Assembly: GCA_963662285.2 (NCBI GenBank)
Contig: CAXXMV010000001.1
Coordinates: 384,001 to 448,000 of the forward strand
DNA: 64,000 bases
DNA from: a bacterium
Lineage (GTDB): Bacteria; Hinthialibacterota; Hinthialibacteria; Hinthialibacterales; Hinthialibacteraceae
Direction of reading: 5' to 3'
The notes under the pieces were generated by a model. It saw nothing but the letters and a program-made list of their open reading frames with translations, was not told where the DNA came from and did not search any database. The position numbers and the translations under genes were made by a program. Every line of letters begins with the position of its first letter. The stretch's first letter is position 1. Shown here piece after piece: positions 5,095 to 62,949 of this stretch.

Positions 5095-5171
5095 TGGGGT
5101 GGCTGACGGGACTTGAACCCGCGACTGCTGGAACCACAATCCAGAGCTCTACCAACTGAGCTACAGCCACC
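5095..5171 (-). tRNA. tRNA-His (GUG)
   Basis: Reverse complement GGTGGCTGTAGCTCAGTTGGTAGAGCTCTGGATTGTGGTTCCAGCAGTCGCGGGTTCAAGTCCCGTCAGCCACCCCA: cloverleaf, anticodon GTG, G-1:C73 pair, encoded CCA. Confidence 0.97.
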
Positions 5172-8761: not shown

Positions 8762-8855
8762 TATCCCTCCCCCAAGCCTGGGGGATGCTAGGAGGGGATT
8801 GATTAGTCGAGACGCAACCCCCCTCTAACTCCCCCCAGGCTTGGGGGGAGAATTC
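8762..8855. repeat. REP-like double-hairpin element (CCCCCAAGCCTGGGGG family), copy 1
   Basis: Two G/C-rich hairpins; closely matches the reverse complement of 55494-55586. Confidence 0.8.
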
Positions 8856-8900
8856 TATCATCTACACATTAATATTACACATTAATATTACGCAAAAACT

Positions 8901-12371: not shown

Positions 12372-12701
12372 AGTTATATCAAGGTTAGGTTTATACAGGC
12401 AGTGGATTATTGATTAATTAGGAAATATTCCCCAACTACTACAAATGTATTATTGAATACTTAATAATACATATAATGTCCACTATTGACATTATATACT
12501 TGTATATATAATAGTATATATAAAATGACAACATAATTCTTTTCAACATGCTGCAAACTGATGATTCCAGGGGGGGGATAACAACAGGTAATGTCGTACG
12601 GCAAATACACTCAAATTAATTGTAAAATTCTTTGTTTTGCATGGATAGCGAAGACTAGTAACTTCCTTTTTCTGAAAAATCTTTTCATGGAGAACTTTTT
12701 A

Positions 12702-12877
12702 ATGCAGATCAAAAAACATATACCTTAATAATTTGGATACTATCGGTATTATTATTTTCAAATTGTGCAAGCGCTCCTACTAAAGAACAATTGCAAAATG
12801 CTGATTATGGGACACCAATCTATCAAGAAGAAGCAGTGCAATTAGGTGAAAATTTTTTAAAGAAACAGGTTATCTAA
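12702..12877 (+). pseudogene. Frameshifted/truncated small lipoprotein remnant
   Basis: GGAG RBS then ATG CAG ATC and an A6 run. One extra A would give ...KTYTLIIWILSVLLFSNC-ASAPTKEQLQNADYGTP..., a lipobox-like signal, ending at TAA 12875-12877. Confidence 0.55.
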
Positions 12878-12980
12878 AATATATATCTTGTTGTAATATC
12901 TGTTATTGAGACATGAAAGAAATTTTTGTTGTAATCGATAAAATTAATCTTATTAACAGTAACTACAGAAAGGTATCATC

Positions 12981-20754: not shown

Positions 20755-20786
20755 GGGGAGCATCGGCTTCTAGCCGGTGCATCAAT
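20755..20786 (+). repeat. REP left of RAYT (GGAG type)
   Basis: GGGGAGCATCGGCTTCTAGCCGGTGCATCAAT with internal hairpin; 31/32 match to the reverse complement of 21352-21383. Confidence 0.85.
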
Positions 20787-20846
20787 TAAAAAATAGAATT
20801 AACACAATTACGCATAAATATTTCTACGAAGAAAGGAGGATGAAAA

Positions 20847-21356
20847 ATGAATATCCGATCCAGTACAGACCGAATTAAAGAAACCTATAAACCAGTCAAC
20901 CAATTCCGAATGTCTCGTAGAATCCTTCCTCACATGCAAGATCCTGGCCACACCTATTTCATTACGTTCAGAACCCATGATATTATTATGCCAAATGAAT
21001 TGTTGGCTGTTGTCATGAATTCATGCTTATATTGGAATGAGAAAAAATGTAAAATTCATGTTTGTGTTGTGATGCCGGATCACGTGCACATTCTCCTGAC
21101 GCCATTGGAAATTCCAAACCTTGGATATCATTCGATCATAACATTAATTCATAGCATTAAAAGTTATTCATCTACAGAAGCAAACAGGTTGATGAATAGA
21201 CAAGGAGTACTGTGGCAGCGGGAATATTTCGACCGGATAATACGTTCTGAATCGGATTTAGTTGAAAAATGGAATTATATTCGTACCAATCCGGTTAGGA
21301 AAGGATTGGTTGAAATCGTGGAAGAGTATCCGTTTTTGTATGAAGAAAACGATTGA
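20847..21356 (+). mobile_element. REP-associated tyrosine transposase (RAYT, IS200/IS605 Y1 HUH family)
   Basis: RRILPH, TYFITF, VVMPDHVHIL (HUH), WQREYFDRIIR, YIRTNPVRKGL (catalytic Tyr); inverted REPs on both sides. Confidence 0.92.
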
Positions 21357-21383
21357 CGCACCGGCTAGAAGCCGATGCTCCCC
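21352..21383 (-). repeat. REP right of RAYT (GGAG type)
   Basis: Inverted copy of 20755-20786, overlapping the RAYT stop codon. Confidence 0.85.
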
Positions 21384-22713: not shown

Positions 22714-22857
22714 ATCACCCCTCTCCTTACCTCTCCCAGTCTTGGGAGAGGAATGTATGACTACAGTATTTGTATTACTAAGGTAAAACGATATAACTGG
22801 TTATTTCTCCAAAATACCTCTCCACCAAGCCTGGGGGAGAATTCAAGAGGGGGTTGT
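22714..22857. repeat. Two half-copies of the CCCCCAAGCCTGGGGG-family REP
   Basis: CCTCTCCCAGTCTTGGGAGAGG and CTCCACCAAGCCTGGGGGAG...AGAGGGGGTTG, related to 8762-8855. Confidence 0.6.
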
Positions 22858-28321: not shown

Positions 28322-30187
28322 TCATAACATACGATCATTCAAAGACGCAACTGCGATATCCAAAGATTCAATATATTGTCTTACCGCACGGCGGAAATCG
28401 GTATATGCGAAAATAAATTTGTCTTTTAATAACTGAATTGCATTAACTTTACTCTTATCGCATCTGGAGATGCAGCCGGGATCACCGAACAATAAAATCG
28501 TAGCACGTGGGGATATAGAAGTACATAATCTGAATACAACATTATAATCATTTTGTAACGTTAAAAATAATTCCAGCGATTGTTTAATAATCAGCAACGA
28601 GTTCTCATCTGAAACATCCAATACTTCCACTTGACCAATAATCCTACCTAATTCGCTGTCCAGTTTACCGCATTCATCCAACAATCCTTGCATCTCGTCA
28701 ATTACATCGCCTATCCTTCTAGTCAATGGCTCATCAAGTGATTCCAGTAAAAACGACTTATCAATCTTTGACTCTGGCAGGGATAAAATCACTTCATCAA
28801 AATCACAGAATTCCACCCCGTCAATTCGGGCGCCTTGGGTTGATGTATTAATCACACGGCCATAAGTTTTTCTAATCATCAACACCAGCGAATCCAGAAA
28901 CATTCTCAATTGCATCGAGGTTTTCACCATGGAACCATCATTGGCGACAACCTCACACATTTGTTGGATATCTCTCTTGGGAATTTTCAAATCATTTTGC
29001 ATGGCGCCATCGGCATATTGCCGTTCTCCGCAGAAAGCGAAATCCAGTCCGGTCAAAACAATCGGCGAGCAACCCAACTGACGCGCAATATGATATGCGG
29101 CATGAGCCGTCGATCCGAAAGAATCCACCGCACCCAGCGCCTTGATTGATTTCAGTTCATTGATAAAACGAATGGCATGATGGGTGAAGAAATAACTTCG
29201 CCCCCGAAATTGTCGGATAATATTTGGATGAACCGAAGGCGACGCAACCAGTACAGCCTTATCTTGTGAGATGCCATCAAAATGCCGTGCGTTCAAATCG
29301 GTAAAATCCACGCTGACAATCACATCTGCCGAGACGCCATTACACTGTAAATTCCCCAACGCCGTATCTACCGCAATAATTAGCGACTGGGCTTGAATTG
29401 ACCTGATCTTTTCAACGCTCTCCTGCAAACCCGGCCCCGGCCCGACCACCAGCGCTGGAATCCCCGGCGCGGCATTCAGCAGACGAAGAAATGGAGCTCC
29501 ATCCAGCATCGCGCCTAGATTGGAAACGCAGTTTCTTAAAACAAAACTGCCCTGCGCCGCCATAGTCCTCAACTTAATCGATTCTCTTTGCGCAACTTTT
29601 TGAAGAGCCTTTTTCAAATCAGCTATATATTCATGATACTGTTTCATGCTTGCCATGACGCTATGCAACTGGATTCCCATAGCCCGCATACGGTTCCCGG
29701 TAATTCCATCAAAGGGAAGCCGTACAGCCTCTTCCGGGCTGCATCCTGATACAAACCGGACACGGTGCGATTGCAGCAGTTCCGTAAAATCGACTAAATG
29801 AAAAGCAGATTTAAGAACAGCCGGATCAGGTTCAACAATCCAGATAAAGGTATCATCATCAGACAATTTATATATCGATAGGGCTTGATAACCTACGCCA
29901 ATCCCGACCAGCATAATATGCCCATGACGTAAATCCAGCCGATGCTGATGTAAAACCCATTCATCAGCTTTCTCTGTTGGATTCGTCAAATCGTCTAAAG
30001 TCATGTATCGTCCATCCGGTTGAATAAAACCCATGACCGGAGAACCATCAGCAGCATTGACATACTTGATAGCAACAGAATCCAGTTCAGTTTCACACAA
30101 GAGGCAAAACAAATCAAAATCCGAACGCCGGAGCGCATCGATATTCTCCATCCATACAGGATTATTAATACGGATTGAATTAATCAT
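28322..30187 (-). CDS. Maf/DUF115 (6-hydroxymethylpterin diphosphokinase MptE-like) protein
   Basis: GIGVGY, IVEPD, VVGPGPGL, AVDTA, LGCSPIVLTGLDFAF, INTSTQGARIDG. Confidence 0.82.
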   Translation of the reverse strand: MINSIRINNPVWMENIDALRRSDFDLFCLLCETELDSVAIKYVNAADGSPVMGFIQPDGRYMTLDDLTNPTEKADEWVLHQHRLDLRHGHIMLVGIGVGYQALSIYKLSDDDTFIWIVEPDPAVLKSAFHLVDFTELLQSHRVRFVSGCSPEEAVRLPFDGITGNRMRAMGIQLHSVMASMKQYHEYIADLKKALQKVAQRESIKLRTMAAQGSFVLRNCVSNLGAMLDGAPFLRLLNAAPGIPALVVGPGPGLQESVEKIRSIQAQSLIIAVDTALGNLQCNGVSADVIVSVDFTDLNARHFDGISQDKAVLVASPSVHPNIIRQFRGRSYFFTHHAIRFINELKSIKALGAVDSFGSTAHAAYHIARQLGCSPIVLTGLDFAFCGERQYADGAMQNDLKIPKRDIQQMCEVVANDGSMVKTSMQLRMFLDSLVLMIRKTYGRVINTSTQGARIDGVEFCDFDEVILSLPESKIDKSFLLESLDEPLTRRIGDVIDEMQGLLDECGKLDSELGRIIGQVEVLDVSDENSLLIIKQSLELFLTLQNDYNVVFRLCTSISPRATILLFGDPGCISRCDKSKVNAIQLLKDKFIFAYTDFRRAVRQYIESLDIAVASLNDRML

Positions 30188-30261
30188 ATATCTCTACATC
30201 AGTCGTTTAGTGGTTATTAAAACAAACGTTCATTAAGGCAAGTATCCACCATAAAACTAAA

Positions 30262-30303
30262 TAAAAAAAGGGACTATCGAAACAGCCTGTTCGATAATCC
30301 CTA
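30262..30303 (-). terminator. Intrinsic terminator
   Basis: Minus strand AGGGATTATCGAA-loop-TTCGATAGTCCCT followed by a U tract. Confidence 0.8.
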
Positions 30304-30696
30304 TAAAAAGGTTTGTTGCTTATTCTTAAAGCGATAACCCTGGTCAGATAAAAAAGGGGGGTTTTTTAACGATCAGCGCTTAATTGTATGAAGATTCTGC
30401 TGGCGGATGGTTATATCTCCACAGAACCTCATTACATTTTTTGTGTATGCTTGATCACGACCAGAGTTATCGGAAAAATATCATGATTCCCATTTACTAT
30501 TATTTATCAATAAAAACGCGGCTAACCAGCGCAAAAAACACGTAGTTTCCCCTGACTCCAAAAGCGGAATTGCCGAACCGCCTACGTCTTCTTTTCAATG
30601 GCTAACCGCTTAATCAACTTTTCAATTGAATAGAGCTGTTCTTACAATATGTTCATTTATAATCACTATAATATGAACGTTATTGAACAAATCTTA
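30262..30696 (-). ncRNA. Candidate structured non-coding RNA (or long leader), ~430 nt
   Basis: No ATG-started ORF over ~20 aa on the minus strand. Two long multibranch hairpins (30518-30609, 30331-30472) whose outer-stem mismatches are G-U only on the minus strand. Flanked by a sigma54-like promoter and a terminator. Confidence 0.55.
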
Positions 30697-30707
30697 ATAT
30701 GCCTTAC

Positions 30708-30722
30708 ACAAAGAACATACCA
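30708..30722 (-). promoter_or_regulatory. Putative sigma54 -24/-12 promoter
   Basis: TGGTAT-GTTCT-TTGT versus consensus TGGCAC-N5-TTGC: spacing correct, -12 C replaced by T. Confidence 0.5.
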
Positions 30723-30810
30723 ATTCCTGACTAGATCATAAAAAGGCACATAAGAGTTTTGAAAATAAAGATTTATATTTTAGTTATACTTGAAGAGATA
30801 CTCTGAAAGG

Positions 30811-30858
30811 GTTGCATTTTGCACCTGTAATCAACAATTAGAGTCGCATAATTGCTAC
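30811..30858. promoter_or_regulatory. Paired putative enhancer (UAS) sites for the adjacent sigma54 activator
   Basis: Imperfect palindromes GTTGCATTTTGCACC and GTCGCATAATTGCTAC, ~115-160 bp upstream of the predicted TSS, with an AT-rich spacer to the promoter. Confidence 0.5.
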
Positions 30859-32246
30859 TCCACTCTACGTTTAGAGCGTCCATCTTCGGGGGGAAGTTGT
30901 ATATCTAACGATGCGATTTTTCTGAAAAGAGTACTCTTATGGATGCCAAGTTCCCGTGCAGCAGCCAGTCTATTCCAATTATTACGCTTCAAGGCGCTGA
31001 CAATCATACGCTGCTCCATCTGTTTTATCGTTGTTGGAATACCCTGCAAACCAGCCTCGAACTCATCAGGTCTTAAATATTCAGGAAGATGCCTCATATC
31101 GATTAAACTGCCTTGGCAGAGCACAAATGCATGCTCAATGATATTCTCTAATTCACGGATATTTCCGGGATAATCATGATTTACCATTACATACAACGCC
31201 GAATGGTCGATCTCCATGATCTCTTTATTCTTCAATTGATTAAAATGGGCGATAAAATTATCTATCAACAAAGGAATATCATCTTTGCGTTCGCGCAAAG
31301 GGGGAAGATATAAGCGAATAACGTTAATACGATAATACAGGTCTTGCCTAAATGATTCCGCTTCAACCAGTTTTATTAAATTTTTATTGGTGGCGGCAAC
31401 GATGCGCACATCCGCCTTCACGGTCTGAGTCGCGCCAAGTGGTTCATATTTCTTCTCTTGCAGCACTCGCAACAATCTGACTTGAAGAGCAGGAGAGATA
31501 TCACCTATTTCATCTAAAAAGAGAGTCCCGCCTTCGGCCAAAGCAAAACGGCCCGGTTTATCTCTCTTCGCATCAGTAAAGGCGCCGGCTTTATACCCGA
31601 AGAGTTCCGATTCCAACAAAGTATCCGGTAAAGCGCCGCAATTAACTGCGATAAATGGTTTATTCTTGCGTGGGCTTAAATTATGAATTGCGCGGGCGAA
31701 CAGTTCTTTTCCCGTTCCACTTTCTCCCTCAATCAATGTAGTACTTTCGCTGTTCGCAATCTCCGGCAATATTTCAAATAACTGCTGCATACGGTGATTC
31801 TTGCTGATGATATCATTGAAACTATATTTCTTCATCAACTCTTTATGCAGTTCTTCAACCTGGCTCAAATCACGAAAAGTCTCAACTCCACCAATAATCA
31901 CGCCATCTTTATCTTTCAATAGAGCAGTGGATATACTAATCGGTATACGATCACCATTGGCGTCAATAATATATACAGTCTTATTGGCTATAGGTTGACC
32001 TGTTTCCAATGTTTTACGCAGGACGCACTGAGATTCACAAATATTGGTTCTGAAAACATCGCAGCATTGCCTCCCCATCGCTTCTTCGCGTGATACGCCG
32101 GTGATATCTTCAGCCGCATTATTGAAGGATGTTATGCGCCACTCTGAATCAACCGTAAACACTCCATCAGAAATGGAATCGAGAATAGTCGCCACAGGAG
32201 TATTAGGCCATTCAGGATTGAAATGAGGATGTATTTTTTCTGACAT
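30855..32246 (-). CDS. PAS-domain sigma54-dependent transcriptional activator (NtrC/Fis family)
   Basis: PAS domain, GESGTGKE, ESELFG, GAFTDA, FLDEIG, FRQDLYYRI, C-terminal Fis HTH. Confidence 0.95.
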   Translation of the reverse strand: MSEKIHPHFNPEWPNTPVATILDSISDGVFTVDSEWRITSFNNAAEDITGVSREEAMGRQCCDVFRTNICESQCVLRKTLETGQPIANKTVYIIDANGDRIPISISTALLKDKDGVIIGGVETFRDLSQVEELHKELMKKYSFNDIISKNHRMQQLFEILPEIANSESTTLIEGESGTGKELFARAIHNLSPRKNKPFIAVNCGALPDTLLESELFGYKAGAFTDAKRDKPGRFALAEGGTLFLDEIGDISPALQVRLLRVLQEKKYEPLGATQTVKADVRIVAATNKNLIKLVEAESFRQDLYYRINVIRLYLPPLRERKDDIPLLIDNFIAHFNQLKNKEIMEIDHSALYVMVNHDYPGNIRELENIIEHAFVLCQGSLIDMRHLPEYLRPDEFEAGLQGIPTTIKQMEQRMIVSALKRNNWNRLAAARELGIHKSTLFRKIASLDIQLPPEDGRSKRRVE

Positions 32247-41481: not shown

Positions 41482-41585
41482 CATTTTCATAATAACAACA
41501 ATCTTTTTCTTATTATGCTTCAGCAATTCATAGGCGTAGCGATTATTATACTGGCCCGGCAATCAACACCGGCGCCATGAAATAC

Positions 41586-42409
41586 AAGATCACTCAGTTT
41601 GATTATTTATTGGTAGAATCAGATAAAACTTCGTTCCTATACCCATTTCACTTTTTACAGTGATGTCGCCCCTATGCTGTTCTACGATGCTATGAGCGAT
41701 GGATAGTCCAAGTCCGGTTCCTTGACCTACAAGCTTTGTTGTAAAGAATGGGTCGTAAATTTTAGTTTTGATATCCTCAGGGATTCCCTTTCCATCATCC
41801 CTGATTTGGATGACGACATTATTCGCTTCCCGTTGCGTCGAAATCCAAATATTTCCTTTCTCTTTAATCGCGTCGACTGCGTTGGAAAGGATATTCATGA
41901 AGACTTGATTGATTTGACCTGGGGAGCAGGTTATTGACGGAATATCTCCGAATGATTTGTGTACAATGATTCGATCATCCATTCTGGATTGGAGAAGATC
42001 GACACACGAATCGATAGCTTCGTGGATATCGTACAAGGACTGATAATTGGCATCGACCTGGATATATTGACGAAGATCGTTGACGATCTTCGATATTCGA
42101 TTGGATCCATCTTCGAATGATTTCAACAATCGTTCGCTGTCTTTTTGCGCAAATTCCAAATCTTCCTCTTTCTGAATGGACGTATAGTCGTTGCGCAATT
42201 CGGTGGACATAGAGTCGACATTCTTCCCCAAGGCGACAAAAAGCCGCTTGTAGCCTTCCAAGTAAGATTTCAGCGGTTCAATATTGGATTTAATAAACGT
42301 GATTGGATTGTTGATCTCATGCGCAACGCCCGCCACGAGCTGGCCTAAAGAAGCCATTTTTTCGGATTGGATGAGTTTGTCTTGAGTAGTTTTTAATTCC
42401 GCCGTGCGT
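41586..42409. repeat. ~820-bp direct repeat copy 1 (kinase core)
   Basis: Near-identical to 43333-44156 (offset 1747). Confidence 0.9.
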
Positions 42410-43269: not shown

Positions 43270-43332
43270 GATTACTGACCTTCCTCAATACTATTCACAC
43301 AAATGCGTTTTTTGAGACGACTAGATAAATAT

Positions 43333-44156
43333 AAGATCACTCAGTTTGATTATTTATTGGTAGAATCAGATTAAACTTCGTTCCTATACCCATTTCACTT
43401 TCTACGGTGATATCGCCCCTATGCTGTTCTACGATGCTATGAGCGATGGATAGTCCAAGTCCGGTTCCTTGACCTACAAGCTTTGTTGTAAAGAATGGGT
43501 CGTAAATTTTAGTTTTGATATCCTCAGGGATTCCCTTTCCATCATCCCTGATTTGGATGACAACATTATTCGCTTCCCGTTGCGTCGAAATCCAAATATT
43601 TCCTTTCTCTTTAATCGCGTCGACTGCGTTGGAAAGGATATTCATGAAGACTTGATTGATTTGACCTGGGGAGCAGGTTATTGACGGAATATCTCCGAAT
43701 GATTTGTGTACAATGATTCGATCATCCATTCTGGATTGGAGAAGATCGACACACGAATCGATAGCTTCGTGGATATCGTACAAGGACTGATAATTGGCAT
43801 CGACCTGGATATATTGACGAAGATCGTTGACGATCTTCGATATTCTATTGGAGCCATCTTCGAATGACTTCAACAATCGTTCGCTGTCCTCCTGCGCGAA
43901 AGCCAAATCTTCCTCTTTATGAATCGTGGTATAGTCGTTGCGCAGTTCTGCGGACATGGTGTCGACGTTCTTCCCCAAGGCGACAAAAAGCCGCTTGTAA
44001 CCTTCCAAATAGGATTTCAGCGGTTCGATATTAGATTTTATAAACGTAATAGGATTGTTGATCTCATGCGCAACACCCGCCACGAGCTGGCCTAAAGAAG
44101 CCATTTTTTCGGATTGGATAAGTTTGTCTTGAGTGGCTTTTAATTGCTCCGTGCGC
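43333..44156. repeat. ~820-bp direct repeat copy 2 (kinase core)
   Basis: Near-identical to 41586-42409. Confidence 0.9.
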
Positions 44157-45913: not shown

Positions 45914-45996
45914 GATCACCATCCTTAAGAATGATTTCATCAAAATAATTCGATAGTAAAAAACTTTCCGATGCCCTTATTGTGCCAGTATATCAA

Positions 45997-47721
45997 CTAT
46001 TGCTTATTATTCTTCAACAATTCCCGCGCATAGCGTTTTGATGCGGCAATATCATCCCCGCCCAACATGCGCGCCAGTTCATCCTCGCGCTCCTGGCCTT
46101 CGAGGACGGTTACGGTGCTGGATAGTCGGCCTTTGGTTTGTTTTTTATCCACCCGCAGGTTGCGGTCGGCCCGTGATGCAATCTGGGGAAGGTGGGTGAT
46201 GCATAGAACCTGCTTGTCGGAACTTAATGCGCCCAGTCGTTCAGCGATGGCGTCAGCCGTGCGGCCTCCGACGCCTACGTCGATCTCATCAAACACCATC
46301 AATGGAACCGAATCGGCCCGACCGAAGACGCACTTTATCGCCAGCATGATGCGTGAAATTTCTCCCCCGGAAGCCACATCTTTCAGCGGCCTGGGAGGTC
46401 GGTCGGGAATGGTGCTGATCAGGAACTCTACCTCATCGGCGCCCTCAGGACCAAAAGCCACTGGACGTTCTTCACCTATATCAATCCCGGATGATAAGCA
46501 GCGGTAGTTGACCTGAATCTCGAATCGCGCCGTATCCATACCGAGAGGCTTCATCTCCGCCTCGATTTTTTTGGCGATCTTGCGGGCTGTGGCGCCGCGT
46601 TTTTGATGCAATTGCCCACTCTGTTCTATCAAGCGCGTGCGGATAGTCTCTTCTTCATGGCGCAGTTCTTCACGCTCCTGATCAAGATGCTCGATGCGAT
46701 CCAGTTCTTCCTTGCTGCGGTTACGGAATTCAATGATATCAGCAATGCTGGCGCCATATTTATTCTTAAGCCCTTTAATCAGAAAACGCCTTTCCTGAAG
46801 CCGGTCAAGTTCATCCGGATCGAATTCCAACGACAGATTAAGCGATTCAAAATCACGCGCCGCTTCGCGTAGAGTGATAGCGGCTGACTGCCAATTCTCC
46901 AGAATCGGCTTAACGCTGCCATCCAACTCTGCAATATGAGCGATCAGCGATTCCATACGATCCAACTCATCCAACAGAGCCGCCCGGTGATCATCGTTCT
47001 CGTTTAATCCCTGGAGAATATCGTTGCACCATTGATGCAGTTTTTCTGAATGTTGAATAATTTTCAGACGGTTGCCAATCTCCTCGTCTTCGTTATCCAG
47101 CAGTTCGGCTTTGTCGATCTCTTCAACCTGGAAGCGCAGGATATCTTCTCGCCGCAAGCGCTCGCGCTCATCTTCATCCAGCGACTTGAGCCGTTCGATA
47201 ACATCTTTCCATGATTTATACGTCTCACGGTATTTAAGAAGTAGATCATCATAAGAACCAAAGCGATCCAACAATGGACGGTAACTATTTTTCTGCAAGA
47301 GCGACTGATGTTCGTGCTGACCGTGAAGATCCATCAGCAACTCGCCTAAACTTTTCAGCACCTTCAACAGACACAGCGAGTTATTAAGAAAAATCCGGTT
47401 GCGCCCATTGGGCGACAGAGTCCGCTTGATAAGCAGGTTGCCGTCTTCCCACTCCACGCCAGCCTCTTCCAACAGTTCTTGCATGGCTTGGGTCTGGGCA
47501 TGACCCGATGGGATATCAAACTCCGCTTCGACCGACGCTTCCCGCCCGGCGTCACGTGCGCTATCCGCCGAACCGCGTTCGCCCACCAGCAGCCCCAGCG
47601 CCCCGGCCAGGATAGACTTACCCGCCCCGGTCTCGCCAGTCAATACGTTCAACCCCGGATGAAACTCAATCCGGCAATCATCGATCAACACGAAATTTTT
47701 AATGTGAAGAGAAACTAACAT
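45997..47721 (-). CDS. recN: DNA repair protein RecN
   Basis: LTGETGAGKS, LHGQHEHQ, ASGGEISR, FDEIDVG, ITHLPQIA. Confidence 0.96.
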   Translation of the reverse strand: MLVSLHIKNFVLIDDCRIEFHPGLNVLTGETGAGKSILAGALGLLVGERGSADSARDAGREASVEAEFDIPSGHAQTQAMQELLEEAGVEWEDGNLLIKRTLSPNGRNRIFLNNSLCLLKVLKSLGELLMDLHGQHEHQSLLQKNSYRPLLDRFGSYDDLLLKYRETYKSWKDVIERLKSLDEDERERLRREDILRFQVEEIDKAELLDNEDEEIGNRLKIIQHSEKLHQWCNDILQGLNENDDHRAALLDELDRMESLIAHIAELDGSVKPILENWQSAAITLREAARDFESLNLSLEFDPDELDRLQERRFLIKGLKNKYGASIADIIEFRNRSKEELDRIEHLDQEREELRHEEETIRTRLIEQSGQLHQKRGATARKIAKKIEAEMKPLGMDTARFEIQVNYRCLSSGIDIGEERPVAFGPEGADEVEFLISTIPDRPPRPLKDVASGGEISRIMLAIKCVFGRADSVPLMVFDEIDVGVGGRTADAIAERLGALSSDKQVLCITHLPQIASRADRNLRVDKKQTKGRLSSTVTVLEGQEREDELARMLGGDDIAASKRYARELLKNNKQ

Positions 47722-49200: not shown

Positions 49201-49287
49201 CAATGTCATTAAGTTAAGTAATTTCACCCTATCGTTGGTGGCTTGATCAAGGGCTGAGCGCAATGCGCTCTTGCCCTTGGCACCCAT
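49201..49287 (-). repeat. 87-bp dispersed repeat with GGG(C/T)GCCAAGGG hairpin end
   Basis: 79/87 identical to 59882-59968 by manual alignment. Confidence 0.85.
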
Positions 49288-55335: not shown

Positions 55336-55493
55336 ATTATTTTTTATTACATAAACGCCAGAATTCCCCCCTGCGATTATTCTTTTTTTGGATTGATGTA
55401 CTTGATGAATTGGTTTTACCGGTGGAGTTAATATTTCCCTTCAGATTTTTCGGTGTATTATGGTTATGGTTTTCCCAAAGTTTACTTGGGATT

Positions 55494-55586
55494 GAATTCA
55501 CCTCACAAACCTGGGGGGAGTTAGAGGGGGGTTGCGTTTCGCCCAATCACCCCCTCCTAACCTCCCTCAGGCTTGGGGGAGGGATA
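55494..55586. repeat. REP-like double-hairpin element, copy 2 (inverted relative to 8762-8855)
   Basis: Reverse complement aligns end to end with 8762-8855. Confidence 0.8.
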
Positions 55587-58566: not shown

Positions 58567-58594
58567 AGTAGCAAACGCCAATGATAAAAGAATA

Positions 58595-58810
58595 TGGGCG
58601 CCAAGGGTAGCGTCCTTTCTACCCTTGACGGACAACCTTTGAGAAACGAAATCAATATCATCAGGATTAATGAATCCAATTACCGTGACGATGATCTAAA
58701 TCATGATTCTATCTTCCGCGTGAATCCTTAGTGGAAATTCTGGGAATCATAGGTGACTCAATCAAGGGCGCAAAATACACTGCCCTTGGCACCCGTGCCC
58801 TTGGCGCCCG
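58595..58810 (+). mobile_element. REPIN/MITE-like element copy 1
   Basis: Inverted terminal hairpins GGGCGCCAAGGGTAG..CTACCCTTGA / TCAAGGGC..TGCCCTTGGC(A/G)CCC; the spacer matches 62740-62920. Confidence 0.75.
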
Positions 58811-59046
58811 TATTCGTATTCATCTGTTCCTCTTTGTTTTTTTCAAATCCTTGGTGTTTGTCATATCGGGCGCCCATGCGGAGGTTTATTTTGATCAGGT
58901 GGTTGATTACCGGGGTGAGGGGATGGTTGGGAAATTGGTTTTGATGGGGGAGAGATGATGGTTAGTGGGTAGTGTGGAGTGGGGGTATTCTATTAAGGTC
59001 GGAATAATGATGGTAGGATCAAATAAAAATATTGGAGAATTGAAAA

Positions 59047-59881: not shown

Positions 59882-59968
59882 CAATGTCATTAAGTTAAGG
59901 AATTTCATTTTATCGTTAGTGGTTCGATCAAGGGCTGAGCGCAATGCGCTCTTGCCCTTGGCGCCCAT
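59882..59968 (-). repeat. 87-bp dispersed repeat copy, starting 1 nt after the FGE gene stop
   Basis: Matches 49201-49287; hairpin CAAGGGC-AA-GAGCGC-ATT-GCGCTC-A-GCCCTTG. Confidence 0.85.
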
Positions 59969-62249: not shown

Positions 62250-62413
62250 TTTATCCCCCTACTGGATGGTATAAATATAATATTCGTTACCTCAACATAA
62301 CTTGTCAATAGCAAATAGATCAAAAACGCAACATTTCTGCACATCTTAGACATACGTATAAATAAGTTATAAAGATTCTTCTAAACCTCATATCAAAAAT
62401 CAGGTTCAAATAA

Positions 62414-62451
62414 AAAACCCCTATCTCCCAAGTTGGGGGATAGGGGGTTTT
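62414..62451. terminator. Strong hairpin with A/T tails (terminator-like or REP-derived)
   Basis: AAAACCCCTATCTCCCAA-G-TTGGGGGATAGGGGGTTTT. Confidence 0.55.
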
Positions 62452-62546
62452 GGTTTTCGGGGGTGGTTTTTTGCATCCCGCCACAAAAGATAACATTGCA
62501 TCCCAATGCTTAGAGGTATAAAATACAGGTAAATGGAGATTTGGTT

Positions 62547-62786
62547 ATGCAAGTTATTATACCTCTTGATAAAATGACGGTGGCGGAGAAGCTTCAGGCT
62601 TTGGATGATATATGGAGCGACTTACAGAAGACGGCGGAAGAAGACATCCCTTCTCCCGCCTGGCACGCCAACGTGCTTAAATCACGGACAGACAGGGCGC
62701 AAGATGGAAAATCTAATTTTATTGACTGGCCTGATGCGCGGGCGCCAAGGGTAGTGTACTTTCTACCCTTGACGGACAACCTTTGA
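62547..62786 (+). pseudogene. Addiction module antitoxin-like protein, C-terminus replaced by an inserted element
   Basis: PLDKMTVAEKLQALDDIWSDL..IPSPAWH..L..R..G...FIDW matches the putative addiction module component pattern; the last ~15 codons come from the repeat; no toxin gene follows. Confidence 0.7.
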
Positions 62787-62920
62787 GAAACGAAATCAAT
62801 CCAATTATCGTGACGATGATCTAAATCATGATTCTATCTTCAGCGTGAATCCTTAGTGAAAATTCTGGGAATCATAGGTGACTCAATCAAGGGCAGAAAA
62901 TACACTGCCCTTGGCGCCCA
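62740..62920 (+). mobile_element. REPIN/MITE-like element copy 2
   Basis: Direct-orientation copy of 58595-58810 lacking 19 internal bp. Confidence 0.75.
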
Positions 62921-62949
62921 AGCGTGACCCACACTACGTGACTATAGGA

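Follow-up and report, generated by a model that had tools for sequence, protein, structure and literature searches.

What does a sigma-54 activator control when a long stretch of seemingly non-coding DNA directly follows its gene? This question is raised by the spacer between a gene for a PAS-domain sigma-54 activator and a gene for an MptE-like (DUF115/Maf, hereafter Maf) protein on the minus strand of contig CAXXMV010000001.1, in a 64-kb stretch (positions 384,001 to 448,000) that we refer to as the window. A first-pass annotation had proposed that the output of this regulator is either an RNA or a long attenuating leader of Maf and the genes after it. Our analysis showed that the spacer is a real non-coding locus, holding a minus-biased structured element with a clean terminator. 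The proposal of a structured RNA was upheld to that extent, while the leader alternative was not favoured. The full reading, in which the element is a stand-alone small RNA (sRNA) made from a sigma-54 promoter under the control of the neighbouring activator, rests on one sequence and is in our view possible rather than probable.

Coding capacity and predicted structure of the spacer

Folding of the segment 30700..30262 (439 nt) on the minus strand gave -128.1 kcal/mol (z -6.31), and 0 of 100 dinucleotide shuffles were as good. The plus strand of the same segment gave -104.2 kcal/mol (z -3.74). When the whole spacer was folded and compared with 25 shuffles, the values were -170.0 kcal/mol (z -4.44) for the minus strand and -138.0 kcal/mol (z -2.15) for the plus strand. 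The asymmetry came mainly from one hairpin, domain 1, for which we obtained -39.7 kcal/mol (z -3.93) on the minus strand and -19.8 kcal/mol (z -0.78) on the plus strand. The second structured region, domain 2, was near-symmetric (-43.8 kcal/mol, z -5.10, on the minus strand vs -44.3 kcal/mol, z -3.37, on the plus strand), as was the terminator (-18.3 kcal/mol, z -5.76, vs -15.0 kcal/mol). The T-run behind the terminator stem is present on the minus strand only. Four of the 21 spacers of at least 150 nt in the window, this one among them, were scored with 25 shuffles; two of the other long ones (12372-12980 and 58567-59046) folded no better than shuffles, with z from +0.35 to -1.13.

The positions and pairing of the individual parts are given in Table 1. 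The outer and inner stems of domain 2 and the strong terminator were recovered as the first-pass annotation had described them. For domain 1, the outer stem was recovered as a rod, and the proposed multibranch loop was not, as ACGTAG/CTACGT closes a single apical arm in the minimum free energy (MFE) fold. Within the branched interior of domain 2, an A6/U6 stem carries a CCCCCC loop, and this loop and the A-rich linker between domain 2 and the terminator are possible functional surfaces of the modelled RNA. A weak closing helix of nine mostly A-U pairs was predicted between 30695-30686 and 30317-30308 (pair probability 0.74). The hairpin at the 5' end was steadier on the plus strand (z -3.66) than on the minus strand (z -0.79), and it may therefore be a DNA operator instead of an RNA element.

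The earlier remark that the outer-stem mismatches are G·U on the minus strand only was borne out. Among the helices common to both strands, there are six positions at which a G·U pair of the minus strand corresponds to an A·C mismatch of the plus strand. The opposite pattern, G·U on the plus strand only, occurs at one position, within the weak long-range closing helix. Domain 1 contains four G·U pairs and no A·C mismatches on the minus strand; its two 28-nt arms differ at seven positions, four of which are transitions, and all four give G·U on the minus strand. In a control inverted DNA repeat (62740-62772 / 62887-62919), read by eye, the three mismatches were split 1 to 2 between the strands.

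The absence of a credible open reading frame (ORF) from the interval of about 430 nt was likewise confirmed. The longest start-to-stop ORF lying wholly within the spacer encodes 53 aa on the plus strand, and none of the 12 six-frame stop-to-stop pieces of the spacer reached a Pfam gathering cut-off, the sole match being one of 15.7 bits, at chance level. A decayed gene or pseudogene was rejected, since no meaningful Pfam match was found in these 12 pieces. A search with the 53-aa ORF against 1.84 billion representatives gave only two matches, at 28-29% identity; both were long repetitive proteins and thus irrelevant, and no translated homologue of the spacer was obtained.

The window was also compared with the 4227 covariance models of Rfam 15. 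With gathering cut-offs, only a tRNA (5098-5170) was detected in the whole window. Permissive filters and E values up to 10, applied to 30100-30950, gave three chance-level matches of 19.4, 18.1 and 12.3 bits vs cut-offs of 55.8, 60 and 75; the top two cover the terminator hairpin only. That no known family was matched is consistent with the first-pass annotation, which had not recognised a tmRNA, RNase P, SRP or common riboswitch, and the RNA candidate of the spacer appears from its sequence to be outside every described family.

Table 1. Features of the activator-to-Maf region, in window coordinates
Feature	Position	Strand	Description
Activator (enhancer-binding protein) gene	32246..30855	minus	463 aa; PAS, Sigma54_activat, AAA_lid_14 and HTH_8 (Pfam)
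Spacer, activator to Maf	30854..30188	minus-strand reading	667 nt
Palindrome 2	30843..30858		GTAGCAATTATGCGAC (minus strand); candidate activator site; overlaps activator stop codon
Palindrome 1	30810..30826		GGTTGCATTTTGCACCT (plus strand); candidate activator site, ~97 bp upstream of the -24 GG
-24/-12-like box	30707..30722	minus	TGGTATGTTCTTTGTG (TGGTAT-N5-TTGT); GG-N10-GT; implied start near 30697
5' hairpin or DNA palindrome	30651..30678	minus	GTTCAT...ATGAAC; 11 pairs; pair probability 0.97
Domain 1	30518..30609	minus	25-bp interrupted rod, 36-nt apical part, then GUUUUUAUU; mean pair probability 0.96 (RNAfold)
Domain 2	30332..30472	minus	14-bp outer stem (pair probability 0.97, RNAfold), branched interior; inverted repeat I2, 93% complementary
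A-rich linker	30303..30331	minus	CUUUAAGAAUAAGCAACAAACCUUUUUAU; mostly single-stranded (MFE and pair probabilities)
Intrinsic terminator	30258..30302	minus	13-bp stem (30302..30269), 8-nt loop, then U-run TTTTTTTATTT (terminator scan)
MptE-like (DUF115/Maf) gene	30187..28322	minus	621 aa; PF01973, E 1.2e-33; first gene past the element

The candidate promoter and its putative activator

In the mechanism that we propose, the redox state would be the input to an OrpR-like PAS activator, which would switch on a weak, non-canonical -24/-12 promoter (TGGTAT-N5-TTGT) from GCA...TGC palindromes centred ~97 and ~130 bp upstream. Transcription would start near 30697 and produce an RNA of ~435 nt (~30697 to ~30262, minus strand) consisting of the 5' hairpin, the domain 1 rod, domain 2, the A-rich linker and the terminator, where the RNA would end, 75 nt short of Maf. 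Transcription itself, where it starts, its need for sigma-54 and the activator, the redox input and any target are our inferences from the sequence. A stand-alone RNA was favoured because the terminator is strong and faces no competing helix of similar strength, because the structure is biased to the minus strand, because activators usually adjoin their targets, and because relatives of the Maf gene have neither the activator nor the leader. The statement that such activators are usually encoded beside their targets is made in PMC8359166, which cites Kazakov et al. 2015.

The promoter box annotated in the first pass was found with GG at 30721-30720 and a G at 30709 (-13), which is the 10-nt spacing of sigma-54 promoters. 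The box is nevertheless weak: T replaces C both at -12 and twice within the -24 hexamer. When transitions were tolerated (TGGYAY-N5-TTGY), the box was one of two matches in the window, counting both strands, although this pattern was fitted post hoc. The promoter table of PMC3844500 lists pspA as TGGCACGCAAATTGTATT, with TTGT at -12, and hydN with GTGT. As listed functional promoters can thus have GT at -12, the non-consensus -12 element of the box lowers the sigma-54 claim and does not exclude it. Drive of the candidate RNA by sigma-54, with this non-canonical box as its putative promoter, is the weaker part of our case.

Other sigma-54-like sequences were considered. Past the terminator but ahead of Maf, the minus strand has TGGTGGATACTTGC at 30250..30238; it reads GG-N9-GC, a spacer one base short, and was discarded. 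On the plus strand, the GG-N10-GC at 30809-30822 is directed into the activator gene; we attributed it to chance, as the window contains 456 such sites. The best sigma-54-like box within any spacer of the window is TGGCACAATAAGGGCA (GG-N10-GC) at 45972-45987 on the minus strand, just upstream of a gene for an 868-aa histidine kinase. The sole sigma-54 match with one mismatch in the window is inside a gene (46741-46756).

The two related imperfect palindromes reported upstream of the box are present at their places, although they are weak, and by themselves in no excess over chance. Palindrome 1 is self-complementary at 10 of 15 positions and palindrome 2 at 10 of 16. Both have the half-sites GCA...TGC, with the centre of palindrome 2 being 1 nt longer, and they are ~32 bp apart. 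A second copy of palindrome 1 was not found in the window. One IHF match with a single mismatch occurs at 30829, between the two palindromes.

The translated activator has C61, C62, D63, C70 and C74 in its PAS domain, and its sigma-54 contact motif reads GAFTDA rather than GAFTGA. Its best NCBIfam match was PrdR, at 389.8 bits, under the cut-off of 795. We compared the window protein with 12 orthologs (68-89% identity), which were picked among the 120 matches listed for a length of 454-466 aa, with multi-PAS homologues of ~800 aa left out. The Cys motif, GAFTDA and the helix-turn-helix (HTH) were invariant or nearly so in all 13 proteins. Conservation of the Cys spacing and the HTH in 13 of 13 leads us to expect that the target of the activator is conserved as well.

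In PMC8359166, redox sensing by OrpR of Desulfovibrio vulgaris is ascribed to a [4Fe-4S] cluster of the PAS domain and needs C52, C61 and C65, with a conserved D/E at position 54. The activator of the window combines the same C-x-[DE]-x6-C-x3-C motif with a sigma-54 AAA+ domain and an HTH, so that its C61, D63, C70 and C74 are spaced as the OrpR residues given in that source. Judging from its sequence, the activator may thus sense redox through an Fe-S cluster, as OrpR does. The likeness to OrpR (of strain Hildenborough), with which it shares PAS, AAA+ and HTH domains, is drawn from a motif description, and no orthology is claimed; a point of difference is the contact motif, which here is GAFTDA, not GAFTGA. 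The two also differ in their surroundings, as the targets of OrpR are the protein-coding orp operons, whereas Maf-like, sugar-phosphate-isomerase-like and formyltransferase genes flank the element and activator here.

According to the same paper, the OrpR site is the 17-bp GGGCGYRTTTTGCGCCC, and such imperfect palindromes flank orpR on both sides. Palindrome 1, read on the plus strand, agrees with this site at 13 of 17 positions. The match is suggestive only by its position, just behind the activator gene and ~97 bp above the box. The palindromes gain some meaning only because the activator looks OrpR-like and because palindrome 1 matches the OrpR site to this degree.

Competing explanations for the element

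Several observations weigh against an sRNA driven by sigma-54 and the activator. The box misses four of the 11 positions of TGGCAC-N5-TTGCW, including the C at -12 and the C at -23. Sigma-54 matches with up to three mismatches occur at chance in the window (239 found vs 264 expected), and the box is missing from that list because it has four. OrpR-site matches with up to four mismatches number four in the window vs 4.9 in 30 shuffles, and the half-site spacing of palindrome 2 differs from that of palindrome 1. No IHF-like site was found between the palindromes and the box, and rpoN is not in the window. The contact motif of the activator is a variant one. As to the RNA, domain 2 and the terminator are about as stable on either strand, and a high z-score is unspecific by itself: in the spacer 62250-62949, inverted repeat-family copies on the flanks account for a z of -8.2. 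We conclude that the z-score by itself does not identify RNA genes in this genome and that strand bias is more telling. Lastly, no homologous spacer turned up in the window, in 40 related loci, in plasmids or in phages, so that the case is one of a single sequence.

The likeliest alternative is that both domains are selfish or structural DNA, namely REPIN- or MITE-like palindromes of low copy number, together with the activator's own terminator; they would then serve no dedicated purpose as RNA and be unconnected with the activator. We regard this explanation as rather unlikely, yet it is a real rival because the genome holds a RAYT gene and several repeat families. On either side of the RAYT gene (20847..21356; NCBIfam 104.1 bits, cut-off 80) stands a 32-nt REP, the two being inverted and 97% complementary (20755-20786 and 21352-21383; region 20755-21383), and at least three other palindromic-repeat families occur in other spacers of the window. 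The long imperfect hairpins of our spacer resemble REPIN and REP elements of RAYT-encoding genomes in this setting, and domain 1 is REPIN-like in size and shape, with two inverted 28-nt arms identical at 21 of 28 positions. The equal stability of domain 2 on both strands fits DNA palindromes as well, as does the fact that the spacer is specific to this lineage.

The element differs from such repeats in three respects: it is single-copy in the sequence searched, it is unlike the REPs that border the RAYT gene, and its G·U pairs are strand-biased. A Maf profile search of genome contigs, made for the comparison of synteny, gave 40 loci, 19 of them close. No second copy of any part of the spacer was found in the window. 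Comparison of the spacer with the 40 loci gave three chance-level matches by blastn and none by nhmmer. Two single-sequence covariance models, R1 for domain 1 and R2 for domain 2, were run on the window and the 40 loci (525,217 bases); beyond the self-matches, R1 had one match and R2 three in the window plus 461 kb of related loci, all with E of at least 0.25. Plasmids (7.3 Gb) and phages (2.3 Gb) gave no match to the spacer. Finally, all four transitions between the arms of domain 1 give G·U on the minus strand, an outcome that neutral decay of a palindrome would produce 1 time in 16.

Repeats elsewhere in the window were recorded in their own right. One family carries a GGGCGCCAAGGG...CCCTTGA hairpin motif and is found at 58595-58800, 62740-62920, 49201-49287 and 59882-59968; copies in direct orientation share 91-97% identity, and some others are inverted. 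The spacer 62250-62949, in addition to its copies of a repeat family, holds a gene for an 81-aa Unstab_antitox protein (62541-62786, plus strand; PF09720, E 9.4e-14). A second family is rich in CCCCC...GGGGG palindromes (8762-8859, 55490-55586 and 22718-22748), and its inverted copies are separated by 46 kb. The 3' ends of two adjacent histidine-kinase genes (559 and 868 aa) carry a direct repeat of 300 nt with 98% identity (41580-41879 / 43327-43626), which suggests that a duplication or a gene conversion took place recently.

A long 5' leader or attenuator of the operon that runs from Maf through genes for a response regulator (RR), PP2C and STAS proteins to a sigma factor was also considered. 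The transcript would then begin ahead of the structures, with 30302..30262 acting as a regulated terminator. Element and operon do share a strand, the terminator stands just 75 nt before the Maf ATG, and no convincing promoter was found within those 75 nt. Moreover, AGGG(A)TTATCG is present in both the 3' arm of domain 2 and the 5' arm of the terminator, so that alternative pairings of arms 1:3 (-10.5 kcal/mol) and 2:4 (-11.0 kcal/mol) can be drawn. These pairings are, however, much weaker than the default pairings 1:2 (-21.9 kcal/mol) and 3:4 (-18.8 kcal/mol), and there is thus no competing helix of the kind that attenuation would require. When the terminator was forbidden in a constrained fold, the cost was 15.7 kcal/mol and no antiterminator helix appeared. 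No riboswitch, T-box or other leader family of Rfam was matched.

The Maf relatives likewise speak against a leader, as the spacers upstream of Maf in the 19 close loci are short and contain none. A sigma-54 box with up to two mismatches lies within 400 nt upstream of Maf in only one of these loci. The activator stands next to Maf in none of the 19, and tblastn (E < 1e-8) found it encoded in none of the 40. As the 19 close loci lack the activator, the order activator-spacer-Maf is lineage-specific. The activator is also much better conserved than Maf, with identities of 89% and ~70% vs 76% and at most 46%. In its relatives Maf appears to show no sign of needing this activator, and it is not indicated as the target. 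With both sides taken into account, we consider the leader quite improbable.

To the same degree we doubt an explanation that does without sigma-54. Here, domain 1 with the U-run after it would be the 3' untranslated region and terminator of the activator mRNA, and a separate sigma-70-type RNA of ~215 nt would comprise domain 2, the linker and the terminator. The sequence GUUUUUAUU directly after domain 1 agrees with this arrangement, and domain 2 followed by an A-rich linker and a terminator is a classic sRNA layout. A sigma-70-like TTGATA-16-AATCAT at 30510..30483 would place the start at the foot of domain 2. This site, however, matches at 9 of 12 positions, and sites of that quality occur at chance in the region (5 vs 3.9 expected), while the sigma-70 consensus that was scored may not be that of this phylum.

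Neighbouring genes and known systems

Beyond Maf, which may also be described in outline as glycosyltransferase-like, the gene order is a stand-alone RR (receiver), an RR-PP2C(SpoIIE) phosphatase, a STAS anti-sigma antagonist and an ECF-type sigma factor. The Maf start was not placed further upstream because the alignment of its homologues begins at residue 1. On the other side of the activator are sugar-phosphate-isomerase-like and formyltransferase genes (Pfam), and the wider neighbourhood encodes sulfatases, an FGE-sulfatase, BNR proteins and GFO/IDH/MocA oxidoreductases. The relatives of Maf include metagenome-assembled genomes (MAGs) of Candidatus Omnitrophota. Several related MAGs have two to three paralogous MptE-like (Maf) genes of ~620 aa each (L003/L004, L006/L007/L009 and L001/L012/L034), and a second Maf copy with 36% identity (P0015) was found on the contig of the window.

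Returning to the stand-alone RNA, we compared the locus with known systems. The closest in layout is nla19-pxr of Myxococcus xanthus, which PMC5568312 describes as an sRNA directly downstream of a sigma-54 activator gene, with its promoter in a 262-nt spacer and several stem-loops. The order is similar here: the activator stop is followed by ~135 nt, a -24/-12-like box, the multi-hairpin RNA candidate and a terminator. The element is non-coding, predicted to form several stem-loops, terminated, and directly downstream of the activator on the same strand. The two systems differ in that Pxr is 108 nt and the candidate ~435 nt, and in that nla19 encodes a response regulator, whereas our activator has a PAS sensor. 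In addition, the promoter of our locus is non-canonical, the phylum is different, and no Rfam model matched the element, Pxr included if its model is in that library.

A second comparison concerns CbrB and the CrcZ and CrcY RNAs of Pseudomonas. The crcZ gene lies immediately downstream of cbrB and encodes an RNA of ~400 nt with A-rich Hfq/Crc-binding motifs. Our candidate is of similar size, and its linker is A-rich (AAGAAUAAGCAACAAAC); it has one short A-rich stretch rather than repeated motifs, and no CrcZ match was obtained in the Rfam search. In the Pseudomonas system as presented in PMC6296734, the sigma-N activator CbrB directly activates the genes of the protein-sequestering RNAs CrcZ and CrcY via upstream binding subsites. 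Non-coding RNAs are also part of the sigma-54 regulome of D. vulgaris, of which PMC4641369 reports four. It is plausible from these comparisons that the RNA would belong to a known kind, the sRNAs encoded beside their own sigma-54 activator.

The most far-reaching form of our reading is that a conserved, redox-sensing, OrpR-like activator of an Omnitrophota-related lineage has a new structured RNA of ~435 nt as its adjacent and main output, so that a new RNA family would relay the redox state post-transcriptionally. We treat this form as speculative and, taken as a whole, unlikely. Should the hairpins be low-copy repeats, the locus would be ordinary. A full-text literature search for noncoding RNA of Omnitrophota found nothing, and, if the RNA is real, the element would be the first candidate for a regulatory RNA linked to a sigma-54 activator in this uncultured Omnitrophota-related lineage. 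It would also give an OrpR-type Fe-S PAS sensor an RNA, not a protein operon, as its output, and thereby provide a new input for RNAs of this kind.

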